DNA of 64,000 bases from Kiritimatiellia bacterium (GTDB taxonomy: Bacteria > Verrucomicrobiota > Kiritimatiellia > CAIVKH01): positions 7,596 to 71,595 of the forward strand of contig JANWZO010000006.1 in assembly GCA_025054615.1 (NCBI GenBank). The letters run 5' to 3'. The notes beneath the pieces were generated by a model. It saw only the letters and a list, made by a program, of their open reading frames with translations, searched no databases and was not told the DNA's origin. The translations under genes were made by a program, and so were the position numbers. This document shows, piece after piece, positions 231 to 58,420 of this stretch; the first letter of the stretch is position 1; each line of letters opens with the position of its first letter.

Positions 231-245
231 GCCGGCCGCCCTGAA

Positions 246-455: not shown

Positions 456-513
456 GGTGCGTTCCTCGAATCGCGTTGAAGAGGGCGCTAAATACACGTT
501 TCGGCCGGCCGAT

Positions 514-5110: not shown

Positions 5111-5773
5111 ATGCCGAGCAGCACCGTAGAGGATTACATAAAGCGGCTCTATACCGAGCAAAAGAAGACGCCGGGCGAGCTGGTTCCCATGGGCCGGCTC
5201 GCGGAAGTCATGGCCGTGGTGCCCGGCACAGTGACGACCATGATTAAGGCGCTCTCGGACTCTGGACTCGTCGAATACGAGCCGCGCGCCGGCGTTCGAC
5301 TCACGCCACAAGGCGAGCGGCTCGCCTTGCATGTCCTTCGCCGCCATCGGTTGGTGGAACTTTTCCTCGTGCGCACCCTCGGGTTGGATTGGTCGGAGGT
5401 TCATGCCGAGGCGGAAACGCTCGAGCATGCGATTTCAGAAAAAGTGCTCGAACGCATCGATGCCCTTCTTGGGTTTCCGGACTGCGATCCGCATGGGTCG
5501 CCCATCCCTACTGCCGATGGCGAGGTCGCGCCGGAACATACGTTTTCACTCGCGTCCGCAGTAGAGGGGCAGCGCTATCGCATCGACCGTGTATGCGATG
5601 CGGAATCGGAGTTTCTCCAATTCGCGGAGCGAGCCGGGCTTGTGCCCGGGGCCCACGTGCGAATCCTGCGCGCCGACTTGCCCGCCGATGCGGTAACCGT
5701 GGACGTCGAGGGTCGCGGTACCTCCACAATGGGGCTGGGCGCGGCGCGCCGCATCTTTCTTTCCCCGGTTTAG
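5111..5773 (+). CDS. DtxR/MntR-family metal-dependent transcriptional regulator with C-terminal FeoA/SH3-like domain
   Basis: HTH (LAEVMAVVPGTVTTMIKALSDSGLV), dimerisation/metal site (RRHRLVELFLV...HAEAETLEHAI...DCDPHGSPIP), and C-terminal SH3-like segment (GQRYRIDRV...GLVPGAHVRIL). Confidence 0.9.
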   Translation: MPSSTVEDYIKRLYTEQKKTPGELVPMGRLAEVMAVVPGTVTTMIKALSDSGLVEYEPRAGVRLTPQGERLALHVLRRHRLVELFLVRTLGLDWSEVHAEAETLEHAISEKVLERIDALLGFPDCDPHGSPIPTADGEVAPEHTFSLASAVEGQRYRIDRVCDAESEFLQFAERAGLVPGAHVRILRADLPADAVTVDVEGRGTSTMGLGAARRIFLSPV

Positions 5774-5971
5774 CGGCCAGATGTCAGCGGTTCTAACTCA
5801 GGGACCGTTCGCCAATTTCCATTCCCTGTAAAAAAAATTTTTAGGGCTTCCATGCTGTGTAAATTTCGCTTCATGGAAGTGGCGGCGCACCACGCCCAAG
5901 GACAAGGCGGCGAGACTCGAAAGCCGATCCAATCGCAGGCGGGCCGAATTTTTGAATCGGACTGCGCCGAG

Positions 5972-7174
5972 CTAATTGTCCGCCCCGCCGACGACCCCGG
6001 CAAGGGTCACATTGCCGTCCGAATTCGCGGTGAGCAGCCGCAAACCGGCTGGCGTCTGAAAAACAACGAGGTCGTTTGGAGGCGCCGACACCAGCAATCG
6101 ATCGAGAAGAGCCGGCTTTGACGGGTCAGTCACATCCAGCATGACGATACGGTCCGTCCTTGCGCAGGCGACCCAGGCCCATACGCGAGAGCCGCTGCGC
6201 AGCAAAGCCAAGGTATGCGGGTCCCGGTCTTTGCGCGGCCGATTTTCCCGAACCAGCGGCCGAATGTCCACCCTCGCGGCGCGTTCCGCCGCCGGAATGC
6301 CTCCAGCGAGGGTCACACGGTAAAAGCTGACCATCTGGGCCTTCTGTTCGGCGACGCCCAGCAAGAGCGAGTTATCTGGTAGGTTTACCAGCGCCATTCC
6401 AGTAGGCCCGCTGCCTTTCGGCAGCCGCAAGATCCCGGCCCACTGAGGTCCGCTTTTATCGAAATTCATCCATACGATAGTATCGGCCGTGGGGACGGAG
6501 ACCGCGGCGAGCCGGCCCAGCGGGTCGACTGCGACGAATTCCGGTTCGTGTCGGCTAAGCGACTGTCCCAGCATCGAGGCAAGACCGGATAATTCCCGAT
6601 ACGGGATTTCCTGGAGGCGATTTTGTTCCCAGCCCTCAAGGTTTCTAAGATCAAACACGCCGACGGAGCCCTCGGTGCGGCGATTGTCGGCTCCGCTGTT
6701 TGCGACGATGGCCCACGCCCCATCCGGCGTAATCGCAACATGGGCTGGGGCGAACCCCACAAGTTGAGACCGCAACAGGCGGCCGGGAGACCGCTCGCGT
6801 AGGTCCAAAAAAAGAGCCTCCCCGCGAGATGCGGCGTCGTTGGGGCGACTCAGGGCGATCGCCAGCGGATGAAAGGGGTGGACGGCCACAGCGACTGCCC
6901 TTCCGGGAACGGGGATGGCTGCCGTGGGATCCGTTGGGGGAAAGGCATCGATTTTTTCGAAACGGGAGGAATCCCAATCAGGACGCAGGAGGTGGATTTC
7001 GCGGGCTGACGGGGCGGCCACTAGGACATAGTTCGGTCCGGGCGCCACGGCGAGTCGGTCCATTCCCGGCCCACCCGCGCGGTAGTCGAAGAGATGGGCC
7101 ATGATCGAGTCGGCTCTCGACGAGGCGGCAAGGCCGGCCAGCACAATCATGGCGAGGAAACAAGTCCGTTTCAT
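5972..7174 (-). CDS. Secreted beta-propeller repeat protein (signal peptide; YVTN/LVIVD-like repeats); function unknown
   Basis: N-terminal signal peptide (MIVLAGLAASSRA) and repeated hydrophobic-strand segments typical of beta-propellers. Overlaps the upstream gene by 4 nt. Confidence 0.55.
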   Translation of the reverse strand: MKRTCFLAMIVLAGLAASSRADSIMAHLFDYRAGGPGMDRLAVAPGPNYVLVAAPSAREIHLLRPDWDSSRFEKIDAFPPTDPTAAIPVPGRAVAVAVHPFHPLAIALSRPNDAASRGEALFLDLRERSPGRLLRSQLVGFAPAHVAITPDGAWAIVANSGADNRRTEGSVGVFDLRNLEGWEQNRLQEIPYRELSGLASMLGQSLSRHEPEFVAVDPLGRLAAVSVPTADTIVWMNFDKSGPQWAGILRLPKGSGPTGMALVNLPDNSLLLGVAEQKAQMVSFYRVTLAGGIPAAERAARVDIRPLVRENRPRKDRDPHTLALLRSGSRVWAWVACARTDRIVMLDVTDPSKPALLDRLLVSAPPNDLVVFQTPAGLRLLTANSDGNVTLAGVVGGADN

Positions 7175-26588: not shown

Positions 26589-27605
26589 CTAGAAAAGCTC
26601 CGGCTGCCTCGCGCGCGGAGGAAGTCCAAATTTCTTGTAGCAGAGATCGGTGGCCACCCGACCTTGCGGCGTCCGCTTCAAATAGCCCTCCTGGATCAAA
26701 TACGGCTCGTATACCTCCTCAATCGTGCCCGCCTCTTCGCCCACCGAGACGGCCAGCGAATTCACGCCCACGGGCCCTCCGCCGAACTTGTGGACGATCG
26801 TCTCCAGAATCCGTTTGTCCATCTCGTCGAGACCGTGCTCGTCGATGTCGAGCATCGACAGCGCCTGGTCCGCCACCTCGCGCGTGATCCGGTTCCCGGC
26901 GCGGACCTGAGCATAATCGCGAACCCATCGCAGCAGATTGTTCGCGATTCGCGGAGTCCCGCGCGCCCGCTGCGCGATTTCCCGCGCGCCGGCCTCATCG
27001 ATGTCCACGTTCAGGATCCGCGCCGACCGCGTCACGATCTGCATCAGCTCCTCCGGCGTGTAGTAATCGAGCCGGTTCGCCAGCCCAAATCGGGAGCGGA
27101 GCGGCGCGGAGATCAGCCCGCTGCGCGTCGTCGCGCCGACCAGCGTGAATTTCGGCAGCGTCAGGCGGACCGACCGCGCGTTCGGGCCCTGGTCAATCAC
27201 GATATCCAGCACATAATCCTCCATCGCCGAGTAGAGATATTCCTCCACCGCCTTTGGCAGCCGGTGAATCTCGTCGATGAAGAGGATGTCCCCCTTCTGC
27301 AGATTTGTTAGCAGGCCCGCCAGCTCGCCGGCCTTCGTGATCACCGGGCCGGACGTCGCCTTGACGTTCACGCCCATCGCCTCACCGATGATGAAGGCGA
27401 GCGTCGTCTTCCCCAGCCCCGGCGGCCCGAAGAGCAGAATGTGGTCCAGTACGTCGCCCCGCCCGCGCGCGGCCGCCACAAACAGCTCCAGCCGCTCCCT
27501 CACCTTCGCCTGCCCAATGAAATCCGAAAACTTCGAGGGCCGCAGCGAGACGTCAAACTCCGTGTCCGCGCGGTTCAGCGTGTTGGTGATGAAGCGATCC
27601 GCCAT
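26589..27605 (-). CDS. ruvB: Holliday junction branch migration ATPase RuvB
   Basis: [13 protein letters not shown], sensor motifs, and C-terminal winged helix; collinear with RuvB. Confidence 0.95.
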
Positions 27606-27716
27606 ACGTTCAGCCCGCGGATTCTACACGGACCGCCCCGTTTGGACACCGTTTTTGCGGCCCTTCATCGGTTTCCGCTGCTCCTCAAGCGCGCGGCGAG
27701 TCCGTCGGCCTGCCGG

Positions 27717-27896
27717 CCGGCGCCGATTTTTCCATTCCATGGAAATTCTTCCCGAAATTTTTCCATGGCATGGAAATTTCCGCGAAAATTTTTCCATCGC
27801 ATGGAAATTTTCGCGCGAGTTTTTCCATGGCATGGAAAATTTTTTCAGCGATTTTCCATGGCATGGAAATTTTCTCCGGCGATTTTCCATACGATG
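27717..27896. repeat. Tandem array of six 31-32-bp direct repeats, each with palindromic core TTTCCATG-N1-CATGGAAA followed by ATTTT and a variable G/C segment; located between ruvA and ruvB
   Basis: Seen directly: units start near 27720, 27751, 27782, 27813, 27845 and 27876. Cores are TTCCATGGAAATT, TTTCCATGGCATGGAAATTT, TTTCCATCGCATGGAAATTTT, TTTCCATGGCATGGAAAATTTT, TTTCCATGGCATGGAAATTTT, TTTCCATACGATGGAAAATTT. Non-coding: the unit length is not a multiple of 3. Confidence 0.9.
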
Positions 27897-28004
27897 GAAA
27901 ATTTCCGGGCCTCGTTTCGGAATGGAGGGGCGATCATCAACGCATCTTTTCGGAAGGCCCGGCAAATCGCCGCCGGCGACGCGCCGCGCGGCGGGCCGTT
28001 CGGG

Positions 28005-28607
28005 TCAGCTCGCGCGCGAGAGCGCCTTACGGACGAGGTCCTCGACCGTCGCGGCGGGCCCCGACTCCGACAGCGCGGCCCGAACCATGGCGAGCGCCTC
28101 GGCCTGCTTGTAGCCGAGGGATACAAGGGCGAGCACCGCGTCGCGGGCGCGCAGGTCCTCCGCAGAGGGCGTGGCCGCGCCGGACACGGCCTCGAGCATT
28201 TCCCCTTCGGTCAGCTTGTCTTTGAGTTCCACGATGATTTTTTCCGCCGTCTTGCGCCCGATCCCTTTGACGGAAGCGAGTCGGCGGACGTCCTGCTCGG
28301 CGATCGCCGCCTTGATCTCGCGCACGGACAGGCCGCCGAGCACGCCGAGCGCCGTTTTGGGGCCGACCCCTGCCACCGTGCACAGCAGCCGGAAAATCCG
28401 ACGCTCCTCCTCGGCGGCGAAGGCGTAAAGCTCGTGCGCGTCCTCGCGGATGTGCAGCACGGTGAGGACCTTGCACGAGGCGCCCTCGGGCGGTAGCCGA
28501 TCGTAGCTGGAGAGCGGAATCCACGCCTCGTAGCCGACCCCGCCGACGTTGACCACGATTCGGCCCGGCTGCTTTTCCTCGAGGACGCCTTGCAGGAATG
28601 AAATCAT
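28005..28607 (-). CDS. ruvA: Holliday junction DNA helicase RuvA
   Basis: N-terminal OB-fold (MISFLQGVLEEK...VVNVGGVGYEAWIP), HhH motifs (GVGPKTALGVL...VKGIGRKTAEKII), and C-terminal domain III. Confidence 0.9.
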   Translation of the reverse strand: MISFLQGVLEEKQPGRIVVNVGGVGYEAWIPLSSYDRLPPEGASCKVLTVLHIREDAHELYAFAAEEERRIFRLLCTVAGVGPKTALGVLGGLSVREIKAAIAEQDVRRLASVKGIGRKTAEKIIVELKDKLTEGEMLEAVSGAATPSAEDLRARDAVLALVSLGYKQAEALAMVRAALSESGPAATVEDLVRKALSRAS

Positions 28608-28693: not shown

Positions 28694-30274
28694 TCATGGC
28701 GCGTAGCGGCGAAGAAGGTCTAGCGCCTGTGCCCGTTCGCGCGCCTGCTGGGCTGCCGCCGGGCGACCCTGCAATTCGCGGACCACTGCCAGATTTGCCC
28801 AGGCTTCCGACTTGCCGGGCCGGCGGCGCACCGCCTCTTCCAGCCGCGCCGAGGCGGAGTCGAGGTCGCCTCGGCGTCCGTCGAGAATGGCAAGGTTGAT
28901 CAGTGCGGTGACGTCCTGCGGGTTGAGCAGATCCGCCCGCGCAAACCAGAGGGCGGCCGACTCCAGGTCGCCGCGCTCGAGCGCGGCCAATCCGAGCCAG
29001 GTGTGCGCGCGAGCGCTGCGCGGTTCGACGCGCAGGGTCGCGCGCCAGAGAGTTTCGTCATCTCGCCAGTCCTGCAGTCGGAGCTGGAGCAGGGCCAAGA
29101 AGGTCACAGCAAGTAGCGTCAGCCCCACGCGGACCCACGACCGGCTCAGAGGCAGAGAAGCCGCCAGCATCGCGAAACCAGGGATCATCGCGTAGGCATA
29201 CCGCTCGGCAAACGGGTTGAAGAGCGGCACGAGGTTCGAGACCGGCCCGAACTGCAGGGCGATCCAACCCATCCCAAGCGCTGCCAGCGGGACCCGTCGA
29301 CGCATCGCTACGGCTGCGCTGGCCCAAGCGACCGCGACGCCGACGGCCATAAGAAATCGCGGGGACATGATCGCGGCGACCGGCTCGATGACCCGGTCGA
29401 CGCAAAGCGGCCACGGGACTGCCATCAGGCCGAGGTAGCGAAGAAACAGATCTGGCGCCGTGAGGAGATTTTGCGGCCAACGAAGCGACAGGCCGTTCCA
29501 TTCGGTCCCCGTCGCCTGCGCGGGGCGGTAGGCGTAGGCCGTCGCGAACCACGCCGCAGCTAGCGCGAGCGCGACGGCAAACTCAGCCGCCATCCGTCCG
29601 CGACTCGGCCTTTCCGACGGAAATAGCCACCACACCAGCGCGGCGAGGAACGGCAGCGCGGCCGCGCTCTCCTTGGCGCCCAGCGCAAAGACCAGCGACG
29701 CCATCTGGAGCGCGACACGGATCCCGGCTTGGCGGATGCCGCCCGACGCTAGCGCAGCGAGCATTCCGAATAGCGCGAGGGCGTCCTCTCGGAACGCGGG
29801 CGATTGCACACCCTCGGAGGCGAGAGGATGTACGGCGAAAAGCAGCGCGGCCGCAAAGGCCCGCGCGTCCGCGCGCGCGTCGCCCTGACGATGGAGGACG
29901 CCGCGTAGCCAGGCAAAAAGCAGGGCCGCCGACGCGGCATGGACGATGAGGTTGGTCAGGCGATAGCGCCACGCTTCGCGGGCGCCGAGCGCACGGTCCA
30001 AAAGGATCGACAGAAGCAGCGTCGGCCGCTGGCCGTCGAGCACGCGCGGGTCGAACATCGTGCGCAGCGTCAGTGTTTGGCGCCAGGCATCCGGCGAATC
30101 CCAGAACCGATTTTCGACAAGGGCGCCATGATCGTCATAAACAAAGCCGTGAAAAAGGCCGGACGCGTAGGCCGCGAAGGCAACCACCGCAACGAGGCCG
30201 GCGGCGAACCGTGCCCGCGCGGGCGTCATTTGACATACCCGAATTGTTTGAGGAGCCAGTAATTCTGGTCCCAC
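28694..30274 (-). CDS. Multi-TM membrane protein with C-terminal TPR repeats (PMT_2/DUF1736-like, O-mannosyltransferase-like architecture)
   Basis: N-terminal YDDHGALVEN-type motif after the first TM, ~10 TM helices, then TPR repeats (AHTWLGLAALERGDLESAALWFARA...). Confidence 0.65.
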   Translation of the reverse strand: MGPELLAPQTIRVCQMTPARARFAAGLVAVVAFAAYASGLFHGFVYDDHGALVENRFWDSPDAWRQTLTLRTMFDPRVLDGQRPTLLLSILLDRALGAREAWRYRLTNLIVHAASAALLFAWLRGVLHRQGDARADARAFAAALLFAVHPLASEGVQSPAFREDALALFGMLAALASGGIRQAGIRVALQMASLVFALGAKESAAALPFLAALVWWLFPSERPSRGRMAAEFAVALALAAAWFATAYAYRPAQATGTEWNGLSLRWPQNLLTAPDLFLRYLGLMAVPWPLCVDRVIEPVAAIMSPRFLMAVGVAVAWASAAVAMRRRVPLAALGMGWIALQFGPVSNLVPLFNPFAERYAYAMIPGFAMLAASLPLSRSWVRVGLTLLAVTFLALLQLRLQDWRDDETLWRATLRVEPRSARAHTWLGLAALERGDLESAALWFARADLLNPQDVTALINLAILDGRRGDLDSASARLEEAVRRRPGKSEAWANLAVVRELQGRPAAAQQARERAQALDLLRRYAP

Positions 30275-31176
30275 TTCGGTTCAACCTTGACCCACAGGTC
30301 GAGGGAAACGGGGTGATCATAGATCGCCTGCAACTCGGTCTCCGCCGCGCGTCGCACTTTGCGCAGCAGACGACCTTTTTCGCCGATCACAATGCCCTTC
30401 TGGGAATTCTTTCTCACATAAATCAGCGCGCGGACACGCCAGGGGTCCGAGCTGTCGTCCAGCTCTTCAACCCAGACGGCGACGGCATGCGGCAGCTCAT
30501 CGCGCAGCTCTGCGAAGAGTTTCTCGCGGATGATGTCGGCGATGGCGAGCTTTCTCGGATAGTCGGTCAAGATGTCCTCGGGAAACAGCAAGGGCCCCTC
30601 CGGCACGGAGCGGAACAGCGTAGCGACCAGTTCATCGAGTCCCTGTCCGGTGACGGCGGAGACCTCGACCCAGATCGGCGAGGGCCTCTCCACGGCATCG
30701 AACGGTTTGGCGGCGGCCCACGACGCGCGCAGCTCACCGGCATAGCGGCCGCCGAGGTCCATTTTGTTGAGCGCCGCGACGATGGGGAGGGTTTCCTTGT
30801 GGAGCTTCTTCATCCAGCCAAGGTCCTCCTCGCGAGGCGGGGCGTGGGCGTCGAGGACAAGCAGCGCGACATCCGCTCCCTCGGCGGCGCTTCGGGCGAG
30901 CCGGTTCATCACGCGACCGAGGGGGCCGACCGCCTTATGGATGCCGGGCGTGTCATGAAAGACGAGCTGGCCGCGCGGATCGGTGAGAATACCCCGAACG
31001 ATGTTGCGGGTGGTTTGCGCGACCGGCGACACGATGCTGACTTTTTCTCCAAGAATCGCATTGAGCAACGACGATTTGCCGACGTTGGCGCGGCCGATCA
31101 GCGCGACTACGCCAGCGCGCGTGGTGGGGGTTGCCGGCGCGTTCGCAGCGTTGTCTAATGAAGTCGGTTCGTCGGT
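30226..31176 (-). CDS. era: GTPase Era
   Basis: G1 GRANVGKSSL, G2 TTR, G3 DTPG, G4 NKMD, and C-terminal KH domain (VAVWVEELD...ALIYVRKNSQKGIVIGEKG). The long ORF (to 31626) is trimmed to the internal ATG (MTDEP..) because the upstream part overlaps the divergent gene; start approximate. Confidence 0.85.
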   Translation of the reverse strand, partial: TDEPTSLDNAANAPATPTTRAGVVALIGRANVGKSSLLNAILGEKVSIVSPVAQTTRNIVRGILTDPRGQLVFHDTPGIHKAVGPLGRVMNRLARSAAEGADVALLVLDAHAPPREEDLGWMKKLHKETLPIVAALNKMDLGGRYAGELRASWAAAKPFDAVERPSPIWVEVSAVTGQGLDELVATLFRSVPEGPLLFPEDILTDYPRKLAIADIIREKLFAELRDELPHAVAVWVEELDDSSDPWRVRALIYVRKNSQKGIVIGEKGRLLRKVRRAAETELQAIYDHPVSLDLWVKVEPKWDQNYWLLKQFGYVK

Positions 31177-31207
31177 CATTGGACTGGCGGCGAGAGGATA
31201 GTGCAAC

Positions 31208-31924
31208 ATGCAACAGTCGCCAACCCCCCGGCGCGGCGCTCCCTTGATGGAGGTTTTCGATGCGTTATTGCGGCATTTCGGCCCGCAGCGCTGGTGGCCC
31301 GCCCGAACGAAATTTGAAATGATGGTCGGCGCCATTCTAACCCAGAACACTGCCTGGTCCAATGTGGAGAAGGCCATTGCTCGGCTGCGTGCGGCCGGCG
31401 CGCTGGATCCGAAACGGCTCCATGAGGCGCCGCTGGAGAGGGTGGCCGAGTGGATCCGGCCGGCGGGATATTTTAACGTGAAGGCTCGGCGGCTGCGTGC
31501 ATTCACGACATGGCTCGTAGACCGATATGACGGGTCGGTGCGCCGGATGCTCCGCGAACCTCCGGACCGCCTGCGCGCCGAGCTTCTAGGGGTGAAAGGG
31601 ATCGGCCCGGAAACGGCGGACAGCATCCTGCTCTATGCTGCCGGACATCCGATTTTTGTGGTGGACGCATACACGCGCCGTTTTCTGTCTCGGCATGGGT
31701 GGCTCCCGCAGAAGGCCTCGTATGAGCAAACGGCTGCGCTTTTTGAGGCCAATCTCCCGAAAGATCCTGCGCTATACAATGAGTACCACGCACTAATTGT
31801 CGCCCTTGGAAAAACCTTCTGCCGCGCGAGGCCACGGTGCGCCGACTGTCCGCTACGCAGATGGCTGCCGGGGCCTTCGTTCGAGGAAACGGCAGAGCGA
31901 TCCATCCATCGACTGGCGCGATAG
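31208..31924 (+). CDS. Endonuclease III-family HhH-GPD DNA glycosylase-like protein
   Basis: ILTQNTAWSNV, HhH-GPD GVKGIGPETADSIL. C-terminal Cys cluster has only 3 Cys (C-x5-C-x2-C), i.e. an incomplete 4Fe-4S motif. Confidence 0.75.
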   Translation: MQQSPTPRRGAPLMEVFDALLRHFGPQRWWPARTKFEMMVGAILTQNTAWSNVEKAIARLRAAGALDPKRLHEAPLERVAEWIRPAGYFNVKARRLRAFTTWLVDRYDGSVRRMLREPPDRLRAELLGVKGIGPETADSILLYAAGHPIFVVDAYTRRFLSRHGWLPQKASYEQTAALFEANLPKDPALYNEYHALIVALGKTFCRARPRCADCPLRRWLPGPSFEETAERSIHRLAR

Positions 31925-35750: not shown

Positions 35751-38363
35751 TTGGAGTCCGCCATGGGCCCGACTGCATCGACGCCCAACGACCGAGTGCC
35801 GGCCGAATTTCATTTCGATCTGGCCAACCGGATCAGCGAGCTCGCGATGCGATGCGCATCAACCTCTTCTCTGGGTCGTGCGATCCATCAGTTGCTGACC
35901 GAATTTATACCCGCGGTCAATGTGTATATCGCGGTCTACGACGCCAGTGAATCGCTGATTCGATTCCCCTACTGGATGGACCGCTTTGACCCACCGCCCG
36001 GAATCAAAACGCCAAACGTCGGCCTAACCGAGTATGTGCTGCGGAAGGGGGTGGCTCTGTTTGCAGATGCCGAGCGTCTTGAAGAACTTGAACGGCTGGG
36101 GGATTGTCGCGTGCTGGGTACGCGCCCCCGTTATTGGGTCGGCATTCCTCTGATTCGTCGGGGCGAGACCTTTGGCGTGTTTGCCGTTCAAGCCTACGAC
36201 GGTGATCCAGCGCTCGAACCGCGTCATGCAGACCTTCTCGTGCATCTGGCGCCAACACTGTCGATGGCGATATTCGCCCAACAAATCGGTTATCGTCGAG
36301 ACCGTCGTGACGCGCTGCTCCGGGCGGCGGCGGACATCAGCCTCTATTTTCTGCGCGACATAGCTTGGGCAAGCCATGCGAAAGAGGCGCTGAGCCTCGT
36401 GGGTCGTGCGGCCGACGTCAGCCGGTCCTACCTCTTTCGGGTTGAGAAAATGGCGGATGGCCGGTTCCTTGCAGATCAGCTCTTCGAATGGACTGCCGAG
36501 GGAATTCATCCCGAGATCGACAACCCCCTCTTGCAACGACTTGATCTGGCGGCTGCGGGATTTCAGAGATGGATCGATTACCTCGTGAAGGGCGACCCGA
36601 TCAGCGGGCCCGTGGCGCAGATGCCCTTGACGGAGCAGCCGCTGCTTCGATCCCAGGGCATTTTGTCGCTGCATATCGCACCCATCCATGTCGATGGGGA
36701 ATGGTGGGGGTTTCTCGGTTTTGATGATTGCGTCATGCCGCGCGCGTGGTCGATTGCCGAGCGGGAGTCGCTCCGGCTCGTTGCGACGGTTTTTGCTCAG
36801 GCCATACTTCGGGAGCGGGTCTATGAACAATTCGAATTACAACGAGCCGCGCTGGGGGCGGTGGCCAACGGTGTTCTCATCACGGACCCGACCGGGGGCA
36901 TTTTGTGGGTGAACGACGCGCTATGTCGCCTGACCGGATATACGGCCGACGAGATGGTCGGTAGGACGCCCGCGCTCTTCAACTCGGGCAGGCACCCTCC
37001 CGAATTCTTTCGCAAGATGTGGGAGACTATCGGTCGCGGAATGGTCTGGGAGGGCGAGATCACGAACCGCAAAAAGGATGGGTCCCTGTGCACGGAGGAA
37101 ATGACCATCACTCCGATGCGCGACGCGACCGGCAAAATTCGGAACTACATCGCGATCAAACAGGACATTACCGAGCGCAAAATCTTCCAGCAGCATCTCG
37201 CGCAAATCCAAAAAATGGAGAGCCTTGGCCGTCTCGCCGGCGGTATTGCTCATGATTTCAACAATCTTCTTCAGGCCATCACGGGCTTCAGCTCCATGTT
37301 GCTGACGAACCTCAGTCACGATGATCCAAGGCGTGAGGACGTGCTCGAGATTCTGCAGGCCGCCCACCTGGCGACGGACCTGACCCGTCAGCTGCTGATG
37401 TTTGGACGGAGGAGCCCTCCCTCTTGGGACCGGATTCAGTTGAACGAAACCATCCAATCGGGCCTGAAAATGTTGCGCCGCCTGATCCGGGAGAACATCT
37501 CCATCGAAACCGACCTGGATCCCGATCTTCCGCTGATTTTGGGAGACTCCGGCCAGATCGCGCAAATTCTGGTGAATCTTTGCGTGAATGCCGGCGACGC
37601 AATGCCCGAAGGCGGCCGTTTGCGGTTGTCGACGCGAAAGACGGTTTTCCCGATGGATGCGGCGGCCGCCGGAAGCGTGGAGGAAGGGCAACCGGCGGCA
37701 CTTCTCGAAGTTTCGGACACGGGGGTGGGCATCGCGCCCGAAGTCATGGAAAAAATTTTCGAGCCCTTCTTCACAACGAAGGAGCCCGGACATGGGATCG
37801 GGCTTGGCCTGTCCGTCGTTTACGGAATCGTCCGCCAGCACCATGGACATATCGAGGTCAAAAGTCGGCTTCACGAGGGGTCGGTCTTTCGCATTTATTT
37901 CCCCGCGGCGCCGGCTGATCCTCAGGGGCAGCAAGAGGACGGAACGGCAAAACGCAACGAGTCGGTTGAGCCGGCGGGCGGACGCGGCGAGCACATCCTT
38001 GTTGTGGAGGACGAGCCGGGTGTCGGGCAATTTTGTCTTCGCATTCTGAGTTCAAACCGTTATCGCGTCACCCTCGCGAGGACCGCCGCAGAGGCGCGCG
38101 CCTGTTTTTACCGATCGAATTCCACGTTTGATTTGTTCTTCAGCGATGTCGTCCTGCCCGATGGTAGCGGCGTGGATCTGGCGAGGGAGTTTCGGCAAGT
38201 GCGCCCCGCCCTCAAAGTGCTGCTTTCCAGCGGCTATGCGAACCAGCAGGAGACATGGATGCGTCAACGCGAACGTTTTGATGGGTTTTTGCCCAAGCCC
38301 TATCACCCGTTTGCGCTTCTCCGCGAAATTCGCGCAGCGCTTGACGCCGCACCGCAATCATGA
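35751..38363 (+). CDS. Hybrid sensor histidine kinase (GAF/PAS sensor - HisKA - HATPase_c - REC), cytoplasmic
   Basis: PAS with PAC region, H-box [20 protein letters not shown]1/G2 boxes (NLCVNAGDAM...DTGVGI...GHGIGLGLS), C-terminal receiver (ILVVEDEP...FSDVVLPDGSG...KPY). Confidence 0.9.
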   Translation: MESAMGPTASTPNDRVPAEFHFDLANRISELAMRCASTSSLGRAIHQLLTEFIPAVNVYIAVYDASESLIRFPYWMDRFDPPPGIKTPNVGLTEYVLRKGVALFADAERLEELERLGDCRVLGTRPRYWVGIPLIRRGETFGVFAVQAYDGDPALEPRHADLLVHLAPTLSMAIFAQQIGYRRDRRDALLRAAADISLYFLRDIAWASHAKEALSLVGRAADVSRSYLFRVEKMADGRFLADQLFEWTAEGIHPEIDNPLLQRLDLAAAGFQRWIDYLVKGDPISGPVAQMPLTEQPLLRSQGILSLHIAPIHVDGEWWGFLGFDDCVMPRAWSIAERESLRLVATVFAQAILRERVYEQFELQRAALGAVANGVLITDPTGGILWVNDALCRLTGYTADEMVGRTPALFNSGRHPPEFFRKMWETIGRGMVWEGEITNRKKDGSLCTEEMTITPMRDATGKIRNYIAIKQDITERKIFQQHLAQIQKMESLGRLAGGIAHDFNNLLQAITGFSSMLLTNLSHDDPRREDVLEILQAAHLATDLTRQLLMFGRRSPPSWDRIQLNETIQSGLKMLRRLIRENISIETDLDPDLPLILGDSGQIAQILVNLCVNAGDAMPEGGRLRLSTRKTVFPMDAAAAGSVEEGQPAALLEVSDTGVGIAPEVMEKIFEPFFTTKEPGHGIGLGLSVVYGIVRQHHGHIEVKSRLHEGSVFRIYFPAAPADPQGQQEDGTAKRNESVEPAGGRGEHILVVEDEPGVGQFCLRILSSNRYRVTLARTAAEARACFYRSNSTFDLFFSDVVLPDGSGVDLAREFRQVRPALKVLLSSGYANQQETWMRQRERFDGFLPKPYHPFALLREIRAALDAAPQS

Positions 38364-41300
38364 CATGGATCACCAGCCACCTTGACCTGATTTACTTTCT
38401 ATATGGGGCCTCGTTCGCTCTGCTTGCGGCCCTTTCAGGAGCGGCGCAGGAGGCCAATCGACCGTCATCGGTTCGTTTGCCCTGGTTTTGGTTGAGTTTT
38501 TTTGCCTCTGTGCACGCGGTGCACGAGTGGCTCGTGATGGTCAACTTTTCGCTCGATTCCAGAGCGCTAAGGTTTTTGGGGCTCTTTTTCCTGGGTTCAT
38601 CGTACGCCCTGCTGTTTGAATTTGGCCGCCGCGGGGCGGGGAAAGCGGGGTTTGCATGGCGAGTCTACGCGCCCGCTGCTTCCGTAGTGACTTGTGGAAT
38701 CGCACCGACTTTCGTGGCTCTCGAAACGGCGGATGGCGCCGCCCGATTCTTCATCGGCTTTCCCGCGTCGCTGCTTTCCGCCTACGCGATGATCCGAATG
38801 GCCAGCGAGGGGTCGCCAGCCTCCGGTACCCGCTCGCTCCGGATGGCCGCTTGTGCGTTTGCCGTGTATGCCATTGCCGCTGGCGCGACCCCCCCGCCTT
38901 CGGCATTTCTTCCCGCGCGGGTCTGGAACACCGCGGCTTGGGCGTCGCTTCTGGGATTTCCGGTCGAACTGCTGAGAGCCGCCTGTGCTCTGACCCTTGC
39001 CGCGGCCATCTGGAAATTGTCACTGAACCCCGCCTCGCAAGGAATCATCGCCTCTGAACGCCGGTTCAATTTGTCATTACACGCAACTCTGGCCAGCGTC
39101 GCAGCTCTTTCTGTTCTGACAGTTTTGTCGGCATTCATGGTCGACCGCTTGTCGGCGTCGCAGATTCGGGACGAGATGATTCAAAAAATTCGCGCTGTGG
39201 CCGCGCTTTTGGATCAATCCATGCTCGAAGCGGTTGTGCGAGAATCTCCAGCCGAAACCAACCCCCTCATTCGGTCGCTGGAGAGGGAATTGACGCTGGC
39301 CAAACAGGCCTTTCCCGACATCGAACAAATTTACCTCTACACTCTTCAGGACGGTAAATTTGTTTTCTATGCCTCGTCCGAATCGAATCGGCCCGAGACG
39401 CGAGTCCGGCCCGGCGAAATTTTCGAAGGGGATGTTTTTCCCGAGGATTATGAAATCTTCGAAAACGGGGTGCCCTATACGATAGGACCGTTTCAGGACC
39501 GATGGGGCCGCTGGGTCAGCGCGCTTGCCCCTGCGCTGATCGACCCGAAAGCCGATCCGCCCGTGCGCATGGTTGCCGGACTCGACATGCCGGCTAATGT
39601 CTTCGAACGTGAAATTGGCCGCTGGCGGCTGGTGGCGCTGGGCATCGGCGCCTTGGTCATCTCGCTGTTGCTGGATCTCTTCTTGAGGCATCAGCGTCTT
39701 TGGTGGTTTGCGCAAAAGATGGCCGAAGCTGAGCGCTCACAGCGGGCGCTCAGCGAAGAGCTGGAGCGCCGGGTCGCTGAGCGCACCGGCCAGCTTGCGG
39801 ACGCCAACCAGGCCCTCATGCTCGAAATGGCGCGCTATCGCGAACTGGAGAACAAATATCGCTCCCTGACCGAACGACTGCCGGCTATTACATTTCGTGT
39901 CGATCTCATTCCGCGTCCGGTTACGACGTATGTTAGCCCCAGGCTTCAGGATATTTTGGGATACAGCCCCGCAGAATGGCTCGCCGATCCGGACATGTGG
40001 AAAAGGGTCTTACATCCGGAGGACCGCGATCGCGTCCTGGCCGCTCTAAAGGAAGCCGACCAACGCGGCACTTCCTTCAGCATTGATTTCCGCATGGCAG
40101 CCGCTTCGGGCAATTACCGCCATCTCCGCGCCATCATGACCTATGAACACCACGTGGATGGAAAGCCGGCCGTGGTTAATGGCGCGATGATCGATCTTAC
40201 CGAGGAAGTAGAGCGCGAAGCGCGACTGCGGGAAGCCGGCGAGCGGTATCGCCAGTTGTTCGAACGTTCGCCCATCGGCATTTTTCATTATGATCTGAAT
40301 TTGCGGATCACGGATGCGAATCAACGGTTCGCTTCATTGGTGGGTTTGACACGGGAGAGTCTGGCGGGAGCCGACCTTCACTCCCTCATCGGTTCAGAGG
40401 AACTCAACCAAGCCCTGGCGACCGCGCTTCGAGGCGGAGAAAGCTATATGGAGATTGCCGGCGGATTTGTGGGGGCGCCGGCGGACATCTGGCTGGGCAT
40501 ACGAACTCTGCCTCTGGTCGGCGCCAAGCACGCCGTTACAGGGGGCGTCGCGATTGTGGAGGATTTGAGCGATCGGCGACGAGCGGAGGAGGAACGAATG
40601 CGCACGCAAAAACTCGAATCTCTGGCCGTCATGGCTGGCGGTATCGCGCATGATTTCAACAACATTCTCACTTCGATCTTGGGCAATCTTTCCCTAATTC
40701 GAGCCATTCTGCCCTCGCAAACGCCCTTCGAGGAAATGCTCCATGACGCTGAGCGCGCCGCCCTCCGCGCACGCGACCTGACCCGGCAGCTTTTAGCCTT
40801 CACGAAGGGCGGCGCGCCGCAGAAAGCGCTTCACAATGTGCCGGGGCTGATCCGAGAAGCTGCCGACTTCTCACTGCGCGGCTCAGCAAGCCGGTGTGTC
40901 TTTGAGTTTGCAGCCGACACATGGAACGCCGAACTGGATGCCGGCCAGTTCAGCCAGGTCATCCAAAACCTCGTCATCAACGCCGATCAAGCGATGCCCC
41001 ACGGGGGGACGATTACGGTGCGCACCTCTAATCGAATGCTGCAGGCCGGCGAGGTGGCGGACCTGCCGGGTGGCGCGTACGTCCAGATTGAGGTATCGGA
41101 TACGGGAGTGGGGATCCCAGAACGAATCCGGAACCGCATTTTTGATCCATACTTTACAACCAAAGCTCAGGGAACCGGCCTGGGTCTCACGATCTGTTAT
41201 TCGATCGTGCGCAAACACGGCGGACACATTTCGGTCTCCTCCGTGGAAGGAAAAGGATCCACTTTCACGGTCCTTCTTCCCGCGGCTCCGGATCGCCGTC

Positions 41301-41791
41301 CTGACAAGTCCGAGGAATTGGATTCGCTGCCCGATTCCGTCATCCGCGGCCGCGTGCTGGTCATGGATGATGAGAAGTCAATCCTGGCGTTCGCGCGAAG
41401 AACCCTGGAAATGCAGGGATTCGAGGTCATTACAGCCGAAAACGGGGATGAAGCCATTCGGCTGGTTGATTCTGAACGGCGAGCCGGCCGCGTAATCGAC
41501 ATTGCGATTCTCGATATGACGATTCCCGGCGGCATGGGCGGCAAAGAGACCATCGGACCTCTGCGGGATGCGAATCCGGACCTCCCCGTGGTGGCGTCCA
41601 GTGGTTACACCGCCGAACTCCATCACGAAGAATTTGAGCGGTACGGATTCTCCGCCTCACTGTCCAAGCCGTACCGTGCCCAGGAACTAGTCCAGACCGT
41701 TCATCGCCTGCTTCTCCAGCGCCGCATGAAGCAGACGATTTCGCCGCGGGGGGAACCGGCTAATTCTCCTCTCTTGGGAAGCTCCTCATGA
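38360..41791 (+). CDS. Hybrid sensor histidine kinase with N-terminal polytopic membrane sensor plus extracytoplasmic domain, PAS domains, HisKA, HATPase_c and REC
   Basis: About 7 N-terminal TM helices, an extracytoplasmic Cache/PDC-like segment and a second TM, coiled coil, PAS repeats, H-box [18 protein letters not shown], ATPase boxes, receiver (VLVMDDEKS...ILDMTIPGGMGG). Overlaps HK1 by 4 nt. Confidence 0.9.
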   Translation: MTWITSHLDLIYFLYGASFALLAALSGAAQEANRPSSVRLPWFWLSFFASVHAVHEWLVMVNFSLDSRALRFLGLFFLGSSYALLFEFGRRGAGKAGFAWRVYAPAASVVTCGIAPTFVALETADGAARFFIGFPASLLSAYAMIRMASEGSPASGTRSLRMAACAFAVYAIAAGATPPPSAFLPARVWNTAAWASLLGFPVELLRAACALTLAAAIWKLSLNPASQGIIASERRFNLSLHATLASVAALSVLTVLSAFMVDRLSASQIRDEMIQKIRAVAALLDQSMLEAVVRESPAETNPLIRSLERELTLAKQAFPDIEQIYLYTLQDGKFVFYASSESNRPETRVRPGEIFEGDVFPEDYEIFENGVPYTIGPFQDRWGRWVSALAPALIDPKADPPVRMVAGLDMPANVFEREIGRWRLVALGIGALVISLLLDLFLRHQRLWWFAQKMAEAERSQRALSEELERRVAERTGQLADANQALMLEMARYRELENKYRSLTERLPAITFRVDLIPRPVTTYVSPRLQDILGYSPAEWLADPDMWKRVLHPEDRDRVLAALKEADQRGTSFSIDFRMAAASGNYRHLRAIMTYEHHVDGKPAVVNGAMIDLTEEVEREARLREAGERYRQLFERSPIGIFHYDLNLRITDANQRFASLVGLTRESLAGADLHSLIGSEELNQALATALRGGESYMEIAGGFVGAPADIWLGIRTLPLVGAKHAVTGGVAIVEDLSDRRRAEEERMRTQKLESLAVMAGGIAHDFNNILTSILGNLSLIRAILPSQTPFEEMLHDAERAALRARDLTRQLLAFTKGGAPQKALHNVPGLIREAADFSLRGSASRCVFEFAADTWNAELDAGQFSQVIQNLVINADQAMPHGGTITVRTSNRMLQAGEVADLPGGAYVQIEVSDTGVGIPERIRNRIFDPYFTTKAQGTGLGLTICYSIVRKHGGHISVSSVEGKGSTFTVLLPAAPDRRPDKSEELDSLPDSVIRGRVLVMDDEKSILAFARRTLEMQGFEVITAENGDEAIRLVDSERRAGRVIDIAILDMTIPGGMGGKETIGPLRDANPDLPVVASSGYTAELHHEEFERYGFSASLSKPYRAQELVQTVHRLLLQRRMKQTISPRGEPANSPLLGSSS

Positions 41792-44526
41792 CGCGATTTC
41801 GCCTTTCCCAGTTGGCCCTCGCCGGTTCTGTAGTCGGCCTCATCTTCGGCAGCACCCTCGTTTGCGCCCTCGCTCTCGGTCTGCTGCCCGCATCGAAAAC
41901 GACCCTTGCGGCAACGGTCGTCGCCGTTGCACTGACGCTCGCCAGTTTTCTCGGGTATGTCCACGGTCTTCGTAAACGCATCCAGAGGTTGAGGGACCGT
42001 GCTCAACAGGTGTCCTACCTCGGCGAACCTCCCCGGGCGGAGACCGCACCCAGTCGATCCTCCGGCGAACCCTGGGAGGTCGAAATCTCAAACGCGTTTG
42101 ATCAGTTAACCGAGGAAATCATTCGGTTACGGCGCGAAAATGCCGAGCTTGAGGAAGGTCTTCAGCAGCGGACGTCGGAGCGAGATGAGGCCCGCAAATC
42201 GCTCGCCGAACTATCCCTCAAACGGATCCAGGACGACCGCGAGCATGCGGAAAAGGAACGGCTGTATCGCGCCCTACTCGACACCTTGCCGATTGGGGTC
42301 ATCCTACAGGATGCGGCGGGCAACATCCTCGATGCCAACCGAGCGTTCAGCGAACTGACCGGCTTTTCTCGCGATGAACTCGCGGGTCGGCTGGCCGCGG
42401 AGGTGTTCGAGCCGCCCGTCCGCTCGGAGGCTGGATCAAAAATCCGCGACACATCCCCCGATGATTCCGTCGTCCGCGAGGTGTCTCTGCGAAATCGGGA
42501 CGGCAGAACGCGTTTCGTTGAAATCCGTGAACGCGGCATCACTCTACCGGAGGGACGACGCCGCATCATCGTCACGGCGATGGACATCAGCGCCAGGAAA
42601 CAACACGAAGAACTTCTCCGGGAAAGCGAGTTGCGGTATCACACCCTTTTCAACACGATGATCACCGGCTTCGCCCTGCATGAAATCATCTGCGATGAGC
42701 AGGGCCGGCCCGTTGATTACCGCTTCATCGATGTCAATCCGGCCTTCACCGCGATGACGGGCCTCCGCCGCGACGAGGTGCTGGGCAGGCGTGTTCGGGA
42801 AATTTTTCCGGACATCGAACCGGTTTGGATCGAACGATATGGCAAGGTGGCGCTTACGGGGCGCCCGATTGCGTTCGAGGAGTATTCGGCTGACCTCCAG
42901 AAATATTTCTCAGTGATTGCGTTCAGTCCCCGCCGGGGGCAATTCGCTGTGAATTTCATCGACGTCACCGAGCAGCGACGCGCGATGGACATCGTCCGTC
43001 TACAGGGAGCCGCGCTTGAGTCCTCGGCAAACGCGATCATGATTGTCGACCGGGAGGGTGTTATCACGTGGGTGAATTCCGCGTTCACGACCCTGACCGG
43101 TTACAGCCGAGAGGAAGTCCTTGGAAAGAGCCCCAACATCCTGAAGTCGGGCCGGCATCCTCCGAACTTCTACAAGCAATTGTGGGATACGATCCTCTCC
43201 GGTCAGCTTTGGCGCGGTGAAGTCATCAATCGCCGAAAAGACGGATCACTCTATCTCGAGGAGCTGATCATCACGCCCGTGTTGGACGCTCAGGGTCGAC
43301 CCTCGCACTTTGTCGCCATCAAGCAGGACATTACGGAGCGCCGCTCTCTCCAGCAGCGCCTGATGGAGGCTCAAAAGATGGAGACCATCGGACGACTGGC
43401 CGGGGGCATCGCACACGACTTTAATAACATTTTGCAGGCTATCACCGGTTTCAGCCATCTGTTGCTGGAGAGCATGGACCCGCGAGATCCGCTCCGCGCC
43501 GATGTCATCGAAATCGATAAGGCCGCACGACGAGCCGCCGAGCTGACCCGCCAGTTGCTGGCCTTTGGGCGCAGGCAGATGCTGGAACCGCGGGCGGTCG
43601 ACATCAATGCGCTTGTCGAGGGCACCCGGAAGATGCTTCAGCGGCTGATCGGGGAAGATATCGAGTTGGAGGTGCGACTCGAACCCAATCTCGACCCTGT
43701 CCGCGTCGATCCGGGCCAGATCGAGCAGGTGCTCGTCAATTTGACGCTCAATGCGCGCGACGCCATGCCGTCCGGTGGCCGCCTCACGATTTCAACCGTC
43801 GGCATCGTGCTGCTCAAAGAGGACGCCCTGATGATGCCGGAAAAACGACATGGCCGGTTCGTTGTGCTTGACGTGACGGATACTGGGGTCGGTATGACGC
43901 CCGAGGTTCGCGAGCGGATTTTCGAACCGTTCTTTACGACAAAAGGACCGGGACGCGGGACGGGATTGGGCCTCTCGGTCGTGTATGGCATCATTCAGCA
44001 ACATGAGGGGATGATTCACGTCTACAGCGAGCCGGGCCAGGGGACGACCTTTCGAATCTATCTGCCCGTCTGCGGCGATGGGTCCGCCGTGGAAACGAGC
44101 GCCCTCGAGGACAGGCAGCGGTTGACCGCGCTGCCGCGGGGTCGAAATGAAAAGATCCTGGTCGTCGAAGACGAGGCGGGCATCCGGGAATTCGTATCAA
44201 ACGCTTTGCGGCAATACGGCTACCAACCCATTCTTGCGGGCCGGGCCGATGAAGCAGAAAAGTTGTTTGACGAAAACGACGGCTCGCTTTCTCTGCTGTT
44301 TACGGATGTGGTGCTACCCGACCGCACGGGTCTGGAACTGGCCGAAGCATTGCGACGAAAAAAGTCCGAACTGCGCGTTCTCCTCACCAGTGGTTACACC
44401 GACGACAAGTCGCGCTGGCCGCTCATTCGCGAGCGCGGATACCCCTTCCTTCAAAAACCGTATCCCCTCCAGACCCTACTGCACACCATACGTCAGACGC
44501 TGGACCTTCCGCCTCCACCCGCTTGA
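41788..44526 (+). CDS. Hybrid sensor histidine kinase (2 TM - coiled coil - multiple PAS - HisKA - HATPase_c - REC)
   Basis: Two TM helices, PAS repeats, H-box [18 protein letters not shown], ATPase boxes, receiver (ILVVEDEAG...[12 protein letters not shown]). Overlaps HK2 by 4 nt. Confidence 0.9.
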
Positions 44527-53822: not shown

Positions 53823-53916
53823 GCGGCGTCCACTTGGATCCCATGGGACGGAATTTACATTCTATGGAAACCACTCCGCGCCATTTTTACATACGATGGA
53901 AATCAGGAGGGCGGCC

Positions 53917-54891
53917 ATGACCCACCGCTACCTGGCTCGGGCGCGGGAAGTGATCGACACTGAAATCGAGGGGCTCCGCCGCGTTCGAGACGCCCTCGAC
54001 GAAGCCTTCGTGAAAGCGGTGGAGCGAATTCTTACTGCTCTGGGCGCCGGCGGGAAGATCGTGGTCTGCGGCGTTGGCAAAAACATCCCGATCGGCCAAA
54101 AAATTGCCGCAACCCTCACCAGCACGGGAAGCCCCGCTGTCTTCCTCCATCCGTCCGACGCCATGCACGGCGAGCTCGGAATCCTCTCCGACGGCGACGT
54201 CGTCGTCGCCTTAAGCTATAGCGGTGAATCCGAGGAGCTTCTGAATCTTCTCCCGGCCATCAAACGCCGCAAGCTTCCGATCGTCGCGATCACCGGCTCG
54301 CGAGAGAATGCGCTGGCGCGCGTCAGTGATGAAGTGATTGTCGCCGCAGTGGATGCCGAGGCCTGCCCCTTCAACATGGCGCCCACCGCCAGTACCACTG
54401 CCGCGCTAGCTGTTGGCGACGCACTGGCCATGGTGCTTCTCGAAGCGCGGGGATTTCGCAAAGAGGATTATGCCGAGTTACATCCCGGCGGGGCCATCGG
54501 CCGGACACTTCTGCTGAAGGTCGAAGACATCATGCGCACGGGGCCGAGGCTGGCAACTGTGCCGCGCGGCGCGCGCGTCAAGGACGCCGTGGTTGCGATG
54601 TCCAGCGCGCGAGCCGGGTCCGTGGTGATCATCGACGGCGACCGAAAAGTCGCCGGGATTTTCACTGACGGAGATTTGCGACGGCACCTGGACCTGGCCG
54701 ACCTGCCGAACCGAGTTATTGACGAGCTGATGACTCGGAACCCGATCCGCATCCGCATAGGACGGCTCGCGGTCGAAGCCCTCGCAATATTTGAGAAGCA
54801 TAACATCGACGACCTCATCGTGGTCGACGACAGCGACCGGCTGGCCGGCTGCATCGACATTCAGGACCTTCCAAAATTCAAAATCTTGTAG
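53917..54891 (+). CDS. kpsF: Arabinose-5-phosphate isomerase (KpsF/GutQ family; SIS plus tandem CBS)
   Basis: SIS domain (KIVVCGVGKNIPIGQKIAATLTSTGSPAVFLHPSDAMHGELG), tandem CBS (VEDIMRT...). GGAGGG RBS 7 nt upstream of the ATG at 53917. The ORF-track entry starts upstream at 53809. Confidence 0.9.
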   Translation: MTHRYLARAREVIDTEIEGLRRVRDALDEAFVKAVERILTALGAGGKIVVCGVGKNIPIGQKIAATLTSTGSPAVFLHPSDAMHGELGILSDGDVVVALSYSGESEELLNLLPAIKRRKLPIVAITGSRENALARVSDEVIVAAVDAEACPFNMAPTASTTAALAVGDALAMVLLEARGFRKEDYAELHPGGAIGRTLLLKVEDIMRTGPRLATVPRGARVKDAVVAMSSARAGSVVIIDGDRKVAGIFTDGDLRRHLDLADLPNRVIDELMTRNPIRIRIGRLAVEALAIFEKHNIDDLIVVDDSDRLAGCIDIQDLPKFKIL

Positions 54892-57312: not shown

Positions 57313-57375
57313 AAAGGTTTCTCTAAGGTTGGGACCGAATTTCAACGCCGCCCGAGTGCGGCTAGGCGCCGAGCG

Positions 57376-57618: not shown

Positions 57619-57639
57619 GGTTGCTCTCCTTCCAAAAAG

Positions 57640-58386: not shown

Positions 58387-58420
58387 TACCGTACCCAATC
58401 TCGAGGCACAGCGCGGATCA

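Follow-up and report, generated by a model that had tools for sequence, protein, structure and literature searches.

What does a tandem array of palindromes do between ruvA and ruvB, two genes that are normally adjacent and co-transcribed? The question is raised by a 64,000-nucleotide stretch of contig JANWZO010000006.1 from a Kiritimatiellia bacterium (hereafter the window), in which the two genes are held apart by a spacer of 399 bp containing six regularly spaced copies of a 17-bp box. Kiritimatiellia are abundant polysaccharide degraders of anoxic sediments and guts, and to our knowledge few representatives have been cultured. An earlier account of this DNA, made from the letters alone (the sequence-only reading), took the array for operators or iterons of a dimeric DNA-binding protein phased on one face of the helix, and named a REP-like element as the alternative. 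We followed the box through the window and across other genomes, and find that the box arrays are a real, previously undescribed family of cis-elements. The interpretation that we favour, at slightly better than even odds (about 55%), is that they are operators bound cooperatively by a putative oligomerising dimeric protein.

The ruvA-ruvB array

The product of the upstream gene is 100% identical to a Kiritimatiellae metagenome-assembled genome (MAG) protein named RuvA and has the domains RuvA_N, HHH_5 and RuvA_C, while the Pfam domains RuvB_N, AAA and WHD_RuvB are on record for a protein identical to that of the downstream gene. The pattern TTTCCATNNNATGGAAA has six exact matches in the window, starting at positions 27729, 27760, 27791, 27822, 27853 and 27884, all in the spacer between these genes (Table 1), and each of the five intervals is 31 bp. 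With up to two mismatches allowed, the expectation from shuffles is 0.12 matches for the whole window, and six boxes at 31-bp intervals are far beyond chance. Tandem Repeats Finder reports the same region as a period-31 array at 27726-27905 or 27907, with 5.7 copies and scores of 156-195, and the repeat search found it to be the sole substantial repeat in the 64-kb window. The array is 38% G+C, against 70% for the remainder of the spacer and 62% for the window.

The six tandem units that the sequence-only reading had seen in a spacer of about 400 bp are thus there, and we agree that they are neither CRISPR nor protein-coding. Several details needed correction: the period is 31 bp throughout, not 31-32 bp, and an array end at 27896 cuts box 6, which ends at 27900. 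The 8+1+8 core that had been described is present in three of the six units only; the core common to all six is 7+3+7, TTTCCAT-N3-ATGGAAA.

A box family of Kiritimatiellia-type genomes

The boxes of the window belong to a family that can be written as the 17-bp palindrome TTTCCAW-N-S-N-WTGGAAA and that occurs in arrays of two to six. The TTTCCA half-site is essentially invariant, with TTTACA possible in one half-site, and position 7 varies by lineage among T, A and C. In the position weight matrix (PWM) the central base pair is always G:C, with mixed bases at the flanking centre positions. Spacing and covariation were calculated from 125 exact boxes. The neighbouring box is 31 bp away in 36 cases, 32 bp in 29, 22 bp in 13 and 42 bp in one, with only three other values. 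Box spacings of 22, 31-32 and 42 bp are two, three and four helical turns respectively.

To obtain the distribution of the family we searched for neighbouring pairs of exact boxes in the genomes of 185,579 species, one genome for each. Such pairs occur at 28 loci in seven MAGs and in no other genome of the scan; four of the seven are labelled Kiritimatiellae or Kiritimatiellia, one Verrucomicrobiota and two "uncultured bacterium" only. One MAG has at least 11 of the loci and another has eight. Viral contigs gave no match to adjacent boxes, and no similarity was found in plasmid and phage collections. A relaxed pattern, TT[CA]CA-N5-TG[GT]AA, matches 37 times in 247 kb of Kiritimatiellia loci, every time within an array (37 of 37), and not once in 281 kb of unrelated control metagenome loci. 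The box family therefore appears confined, so far, to Kiritimatiellia-type MAGs. The sequence-only reading had named absence of the units elsewhere in the genome as a point against a regulatory array; the opposite was found, as they are dispersed and conserved in position. It had also recognised no known operator or element family, and this still stands: Rfam and the NrdR consensus gave no match, and literature searches on the motif and on Kiritimatiellia repeats or regulatory motifs found nothing relevant.

Beyond the ruvAB array the window has two further sites, one already seen in the pattern search and one added by a PWM built from 120 boxes, which gave no others across the whole window. 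The first is a pair of boxes that ends 14 nt 5' of the start codon of kdsD (position 53917), directly before an AGGAGG sequence, and so abuts the ribosome-binding site. The other pair, at 5816-5863, is degenerate and lies where a DtxR-like gene (5111-5773, + strand) and an unannotated 400-aa gene (5972-7174, - strand) converge, a context in which no promoter is expected.

Conservation at ruvAB and kdsD

The ruvA region was compared in nine relatives, whose RuvA is 61-85% identical to that of the window and whose ruvA-ruvB spacers measure 46-192 bp. Boxes at ruvAB, or a contig end where boxes would be expected, were found in all nine. The spacers of L033 and L035, of 111 and 113 bp, have three 31-bp units each, TTCCATGCTCTGTAAAAACTTTTTTT; the 192-bp spacer of L038 has three TTTTCCAAYNTTTGGAAAA boxes at 31-bp spacing; and that of L122 has two degenerate boxes 32 bp apart. 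In L036 and L037 two boxes 32 bp apart lie directly upstream of ruvA instead. The contigs of L034 and L032 end within the array just past ruvA, and that of L031 ends 5 bp after ruvA, at the expected array start.

The box pair at kdsD is equally persistent. In each of the three relatives compared there (L119, L120 and L121; KdsD identity 67-84%) a pair of boxes at 31-32-bp spacing ends 8-25 nt upstream of the start codon. The flanking DNA of these loci, about 200 kb, contains only two other arrays. Over the same distances the synonymous sites are essentially saturated: identity at four-fold degenerate sites is 0.36-0.49 in kdsD, where 0.31-0.42 is expected at saturation, and 0.47-0.53 in ruvA between the window and its relatives. 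At orthologous sites the linkers are unrelated, while the boxes and their 31/32-bp spacing are retained, and on this comparison the box pattern at ruvAB and kdsD is a phylogenetic footprint. Orthologous sites also have quirks in common, such as the TTTACA half-site at kdsD, which is found in the window, L119 and L120, and this argues for vertical inheritance under selection and not for homogenisation within each genome.

Two further observations concern the ruvA-ruvB gap itself. Four independent short-read contigs (L001, L031, L032 and L034) stop inside the array or only a few bases beyond ruvA, which fits an assembly break at repeated sequence and leaves the copy number unreadable in those relatives. 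Where the spacer has no strong boxes, other structures take their place: at 10598-10675 of L036 there are long GC-rich hairpins with GGTTTCAGGTGTCAGG... repeats, and at about 10700-10760 of L122 a long GC-rich hairpin, GCTGTAGCGGCG...CGCCGCTACAGC, with a REP-like GTAG inside it. In this class, structured inserts seem to be drawn to the gap.

What the arrays may be

Boxes, phasing, restriction to one clade within the scan and conservation beside the same genes are established. The form of the boxes points to double-stranded DNA read by a protein, since near-invariant 6-bp half-sites lie one turn apart around a fixed centre and the boxes themselves are spaced by helical turns. A hairpin loop would not need a central G:C pair. 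The TTCCATGCTCTGTAAA arrays of L033-L035 (TTCCAT-N3-CTGTAAA) can form no hairpin on either strand and still keep the 31-bp phase, and a nucleic-acid stem is therefore not the feature that is conserved. The protein, its cooperative binding and its effect on transcription are inferred.

In this operator model each box would be bound by a dimer of a putative sequence-specific DNA-binding protein, and dimers on phased boxes would touch and build a higher-order, probably DNA-wrapping complex, as Lrp/feast-famine regulators and NrdR do. Six dimers at the ruv locus would occupy some 170 bp of the spacer, in a complex that might block read-through from ruvA or might occlude or activate an internal ruvB promoter. 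The outcome would be that ruvB expression could be controlled separately from ruvA. Conservation at ruvAB and kdsD, divergence of the linkers and helical-turn spacing favour this part of the sequence-only reading, a dimer-operator array phased on one face; the iteron or origin variant that accompanied it does not survive, as discussed below.

A number of observations weigh against operators. No sigma-70-like promoter is predicted in the ruvA-ruvB spacer, and Pfam searches show no obvious candidate for the binder encoded in the window. Gene context across the MAGs is mixed, and comes from genes in the 28 genome loci that were called with a custom open reading frame (ORF) caller based on G+C at third codon positions (GC3), with possible errors. 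Genes were called on both sides of 31 arrays, of which 22 have co-directional neighbours, four divergent ones and five convergent ones; between convergent genes no promoter is expected. The genes downstream, assigned by eye, include leuA, thrC, ilvB, hisF, hisI, carB, icd, pheS, murF and hypD as well as secretion and restriction-modification genes, and are thus diverse in function; no orthologous flanking genes are common to the seven MAGs when loci with two exact boxes only are considered. In CAZGMQ a 70-bp three-box module (P1, 5 bp, P2, 14 bp, P3) is present at 11 loci, near-identical except for 4-5 nt in one linker and in both orientations relative to transcription, and in JAFTAH the linkers are uniform. 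These uniform modules look more like a propagating repeat than like independently evolving operators. Finally, positions 7 and 11 of the box are complementary in 84% of cases against 51% expected, the exceptions being mostly T/C hybrids, and such complementarity is demanded by a hairpin and not by a dimer.

The near-identity of the 11 CAZGMQ modules suggests that cassettes could be copied to new intergenic regions, and this can be built into a wider proposal. The boxes would be sites of a putative Kiritimatiellia-specific global system, in which a protein polymerises at two- to three-turn spacing and cassettes of about 70 bp are copied as "mobile operators or insulators", with the core ruvAB and kdsD sites fixed across the class. 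We regard this as a tentative extension that is itself rather doubtful. If it were true, the ruvA-ruvB array would be a conserved switch within an operon whose genes are otherwise, in most bacteria, tightly coupled.

The main rival is an interspersed repeat of the REP/BIME or MIRU kind, in which a palindrome, selfish or structural, has spread to intergenic regions and been amplified in tandem. Its effects would come from DNA or RNA hairpins (mRNA stabilisation, weak termination, gyrase binding) with no dedicated regulator. The near-identical modules at 11 CAZGMQ loci, their occurrence in both orientations, the uniform JAFTAH linkers and the covariation of arm positions 7 and 11 are all what such a repeat would give. 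The same can be said of the variable copy number (2-6), the breaks of short-read contigs at the array and the predicted RNA fold of the window spacer, which is very stable against shuffles (z-score -7.4). At least 11 loci belong to one MAG, all types of context occur, and flanking genes are not orthologous between MAGs; the split into co-directional, convergent and divergent contexts is roughly as such regions occur; and arrays sit mid-spacer, with medians of 35 bp to the stop of the upstream gene and 48 bp to the start of the downstream one. Against a background of about one array per 25-60 kb, however, arrays stay at ruvAB and kdsD despite saturated synonymous sites, and orthologous sites are more alike than different sites within one genome. 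Units incapable of forming a hairpin are conserved, the central base is invariably G or C, and spacing follows whole helical turns, among them 22 bp, a value not accounted for by simple duplication of units. The boxes also lack a GTAG motif, and no box occurs in any of the 80 loci with RAYT-like Y1 transposases (281 kb). The REP-like alternative of the sequence-only reading is thus weakened by positional conservation, keeping on its side the near-identical modules per genome and some arrays between convergent genes, and we now consider it unlikely, although a serious competitor.

A link to REP-associated tyrosine transposases (RAYT) was suggested by L035, in which a 319-aa Y1_Tnp gene, REP-associated tyrosine transposase-like, lies at 1-667 (- strand), about 9 kb from ruvA. 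It was rejected on the 80 metagenome loci mentioned above, which encode relatives of this protein and have no box, with the proviso that close relatives, at 63-73% identity to the protein of L035, are limited to the four best of the 80. No other Y1_Tnp gene was found in the window or the fetched Kiritimatiellia loci.

The arrays might instead be a platform for an architectural or chromosome-organising protein (nucleoid-associated, ParB/Noc-like, or a gyrase or insulator site) that marks the boundaries of transcription units or organises domains and does not regulate specific promoters. Everything that indicates protein binding applies here as well, and convergent regions, lack of orientation bias and mid-spacer placement would be accounted for; the arrays are also AT-rich islands in a 62% G+C genome. 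Such a role is nevertheless improbable given the low density (three sites in 64 kb), the tight association of the sites with ruvAB and kdsD, the several arrays that end 8-25 nt from a start codon and, from Pfam in the window, the lack of a partition or Noc-like gene nearby.

Still less credence can be given to an RNA element, in which processing, stability, termination or translation would be controlled by tandem hairpins in the ruvA-ruvB intercistronic transcript and the leader of kdsD. The palindromes would give stems of 7-11 bp, the spacer fold is far more stable than that of shuffled sequence, and many arrays must be transcribed, since they reach to within a few nucleotides of a start codon. 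Yet TTCCAT-N3-CTGTAAA and TTTACAG-N3-ATGGAAA units, both conserved, cannot form a stem on either strand, and arrays are found in both orientations and between convergent genes. Helical-turn spacing and a conserved central G:C pair are characteristic of double-stranded DNA; the search for intrinsic terminators predicts none inside the ruvA-ruvB array, and no Rfam family reaches threshold there. Known RNA families had been examined as candidates in their own right: only a tRNA of the window reaches the Rfam threshold, and in the spacer the best score is 30 bits against a cut-off of 100 bits, with matches to generic hairpin families. A strand-specific G-U wobble in SLBD units, taken as a test for an RNA hairpin, has by eye no consistent relation to the direction of transcription.

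Fixed-period tandem palindromes recall sopC-type centromeres and iteron arrays, but iterons of a replication origin or a plasmid-type centromere are effectively refuted by the dispersed, gene-proximal distribution (three sites in the window, at least 11 loci in one MAG), by the lack of a GC-skew switch at the array, for which the sequence-only reading had proposed a check, and of a nearby dnaA, rep or par gene (Pfam, window), and by plasmid and phage collections in which nothing matches.

Two other candidates were rejected. Because of ruvAB a LexA/SOS operator came to mind; none of the fetched loci contains recA, lexA or ruvC, and flanking genes other than ruvAB are by eye housekeeping or biosynthetic and not SOS genes. 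DnaA boxes or an origin were also considered, with TTTTCCACA in box P1 of CAZGMQ and JAXGNL, which we take to fit a relaxed DnaA-box consensus. Most boxes read TTTTCCAT/A and are dispersed, and there is no skew switch.

A near-perfect, clade-restricted box, strictly phased and conserved beside defined genes, gives access to the regulatory biology of Kiritimatiellia, as a bait for the binder and as a search pattern with which a regulon could be defined from MAGs alone. It also raises the puzzle of a regulated spacer between ruvA and ruvB throughout the lineage. Should the modules also spread as cassettes, they would show operator arrays grading into dispersed repeats.

Other features of the window

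Table 1. Positions in the window of the box sites, the genes beside them and the inverted repeat around the ruvA-ruvB array.
Feature	Position	Strand	Basis
ruvA, 200 aa, upstream gene of the pair	28005..28607	-	ORF
ruvB, 338 aa, downstream gene	26589..27605	-	ORF
ruvA-ruvB intergenic spacer, 399 bp	27606..28004		between ORFs
Six-unit array, period 31 bp, 38% G+C	27726..27905		Tandem Repeats Finder, repeat search (family D1), composition
Box 1, TTTCCATTCCATGGAAA	27729..27745		exact match; PWM 33.4 bits
Box 2, TTTCCATGGCATGGAAA	27760..27776		exact match; PWM 34.4 bits
Box 3, TTTCCATCGCATGGAAA	27791..27807		exact match; PWM 32.4 bits
Box 4, TTTCCATGGCATGGAAA	27822..27838		exact match; PWM 34.0 bits
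Box 5, TTTCCATGGCATGGAAA	27853..27869		exact match; PWM 31.8 bits
Box 6, TTTCCATACGATGGAAA	27884..27900		exact match; PWM 32.0 bits
Left arm of GC-rich inverted repeat around the array	27690..27729		inverted repeats I12 and I15, RNA fold, sequence comparison
Right arm of the same inverted repeat	27964..27990		inverted-repeat search, RNA fold, sequence comparison
Second site, boxes TTTACATTCTATGGAAA and TTTACATACGATGGAAA, 32 bp apart	53854..53902		pattern search, PWM
kdsD/kpsF-type arabinose-5-phosphate isomerase gene	53917..54891	+	ORF, ribosome-binding site, SIS and CBS domains, homologue names
Third, degenerate site, boxes TTTCCATTCCCTGTAAA and CTTCCATGCTGTGTAAA, 31 bp apart	5816..5863		PWM

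The ruvA-ruvB array is bracketed by a GC-rich inverted repeat of about 27 nt, in which 24 of 27 bases match by manual count and which encloses the array together with about 60 bp beside it. The left arm has a 13-nt insert with a small hairpin of its own, and this is the terminator-like hit in the spacer. The arms pair in the predicted RNA fold; no further copy was found in the window, and there is no counterpart in the shorter ruvA-ruvB spacers of the relatives. It may act as a long-range RNA stem or mark where an insertion begins and ends.

Away from the boxes, two ABC-3 (TroC/TroD-type) permeases at 514-1791 and 1788-3242 (both - strand) each have a C-terminal Fe_dep_repr_C, the DtxR metal-binding/dimerisation domain, a fusion that looks unusual. 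The operon that contains them also encodes a ZnuA-type binding protein and an ATPase, and is divergent from the gene of a DtxR-like repressor with a FeoA domain. Three consecutive hybrid histidine kinases of 870, 1143 and 912 aa occupy 35751-44526, with GAF/PAS, HisKA, HATPase and receiver domains, and have a paralogous H-box region in common (repeat family D2). The longest ORF of an Era-type GTPase gene at 30226-31626 (- strand) encodes 466 aa, its 3' end overlapping the next gene (28694-30274) by 49 bp; as the Era genes of relatives encode 307-317 aa, translation probably begins about 150 codons inside this ORF, whose own start is at the 31626 end. An ordinary fatty-acid synthesis cluster by Pfam (plsX, fabH, fabD, fabG, fabF) lies at 56071-61419 (- strand) and includes an 81-codon ORF at 57376-57618, between fabG and fabF in that order.

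Comparison with known systems

Mycobacterial MIRU-VNTR loci resemble the arrays as variable-copy tandem units in the intercistronic regions of operons. They differ in that the 31-bp period is not a multiple of 3 and contains no small ORFs, the units of the arrays are palindromic, and it is the box and the phase that are conserved and not the whole unit. Plasmid centromeres and iterons such as F sopC also consist of head-to-tail units, each with an inverted repeat bound by a dimer, as is predicted for the arrays, whereas the arrays are chromosomal, at many loci beside housekeeping genes, with no partition or replication genes nearby and no plasmid match.

REP/BIME elements of Enterobacteria and Pseudomonas, which are associated with RAYT, are likewise short dispersed intergenic palindromes, often clustered, found within operons, species-specific and a cause of assembly breaks. 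Where they alternate in orientation, the arrays are direct tandems at a strict helical-turn period, with no GTAG head and with conserved non-palindromic variants: the six boxes of the window can form stem-loops, while the TTCCATGCTCTGTAAA arrays of L033-L035 and the TTTACAG-type boxes at kdsD cannot. Boxes are absent from the 80 RAYT-like loci, and their positions are conserved over far deeper divergence.

Closer parallels are found among regulators that bind as interacting dimers. Sites of the archaeal Lrp family are clustered on one face of the helix two or three turns apart, with the DNA wrapped around interacting dimers (PMC2995911). The boxes resemble those of Lrp/feast-famine regulators (FFRP; E. 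coli Lrp, Sulfolobus Ss-LrpB) in being palindromes of about 15 bp with a 6-3-6 layout in clusters of several sites, and the arrays, with two to six boxes at 22 and 31-32 bp, show the clustering and spacing of that family. Several of the genes flanking arrays are, by eye, for amino-acid biosynthesis. At the level of sequence the two part. The FFRP box, abcde-WWW-edcba, has an A/T-rich centre contacted in the minor groove and the array boxes have G/C there; the TTTCCA half-site matches none of the published FFRP optima compared; and natural Lrp sites are usually degenerate whereas the array boxes are near-perfect. Pfam shows no Lrp/AsnC gene in the window, and none is linked to arrays, the stand-alone AsnC_trans_reg domain protein of L120 included.

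NrdR was the other candidate, and one whose gene adjoins an array. At the CAZGMQ locus L022 (3543-4900) a three-box module follows nrdR at a distance of 51 bp, on its downstream and not its upstream side, and precedes by 19 bp a gene for a 240-aa protein with no Pfam match. The NrdR tetramer, a dimer of dimers, binds one face of the helix at two 16-bp boxes with a non-conserved linker of 15-16 bp between them; one extra turn is tolerated, and NrdR boxes lie 31-32 or 41-42 bp apart, centre to centre (PMC12051234, PMC13584703). The published consensus is an even-length box with an AT centre and conserved C4, A6, A8, T9, T11 and G13. The array box TTTCCAWNSNWTGGAAA departs from this in its odd length, its G/C centre and a C/G pair 8 or 10 bp apart and not 9. 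Arrays have up to six boxes, and their 22-bp spacing falls outside the spacer windows reported for tight NrdR binding (14-17 and 24-27 bp). The L022 NrdR (Pfam Zn_ribbon_NrdR and ATP-cone) keeps D-S-R at positions 15-17, which are presumably the residues tied to recognition of C4 and G13. The genes flanking arrays are not ribonucleotide reductase (RNR) genes, no RNR gene occurs in the window (Pfam) or in any fetched locus, and canonical NrdR box pairs give only scattered, chance-like matches in all fetched loci. NrdR boxes were rejected on the published conserved positions, which do not fit. The geometry does fit: 17-bp boxes separated by non-conserved linkers of 14-15 bp lie 31 or 32 bp apart, centre to centre.

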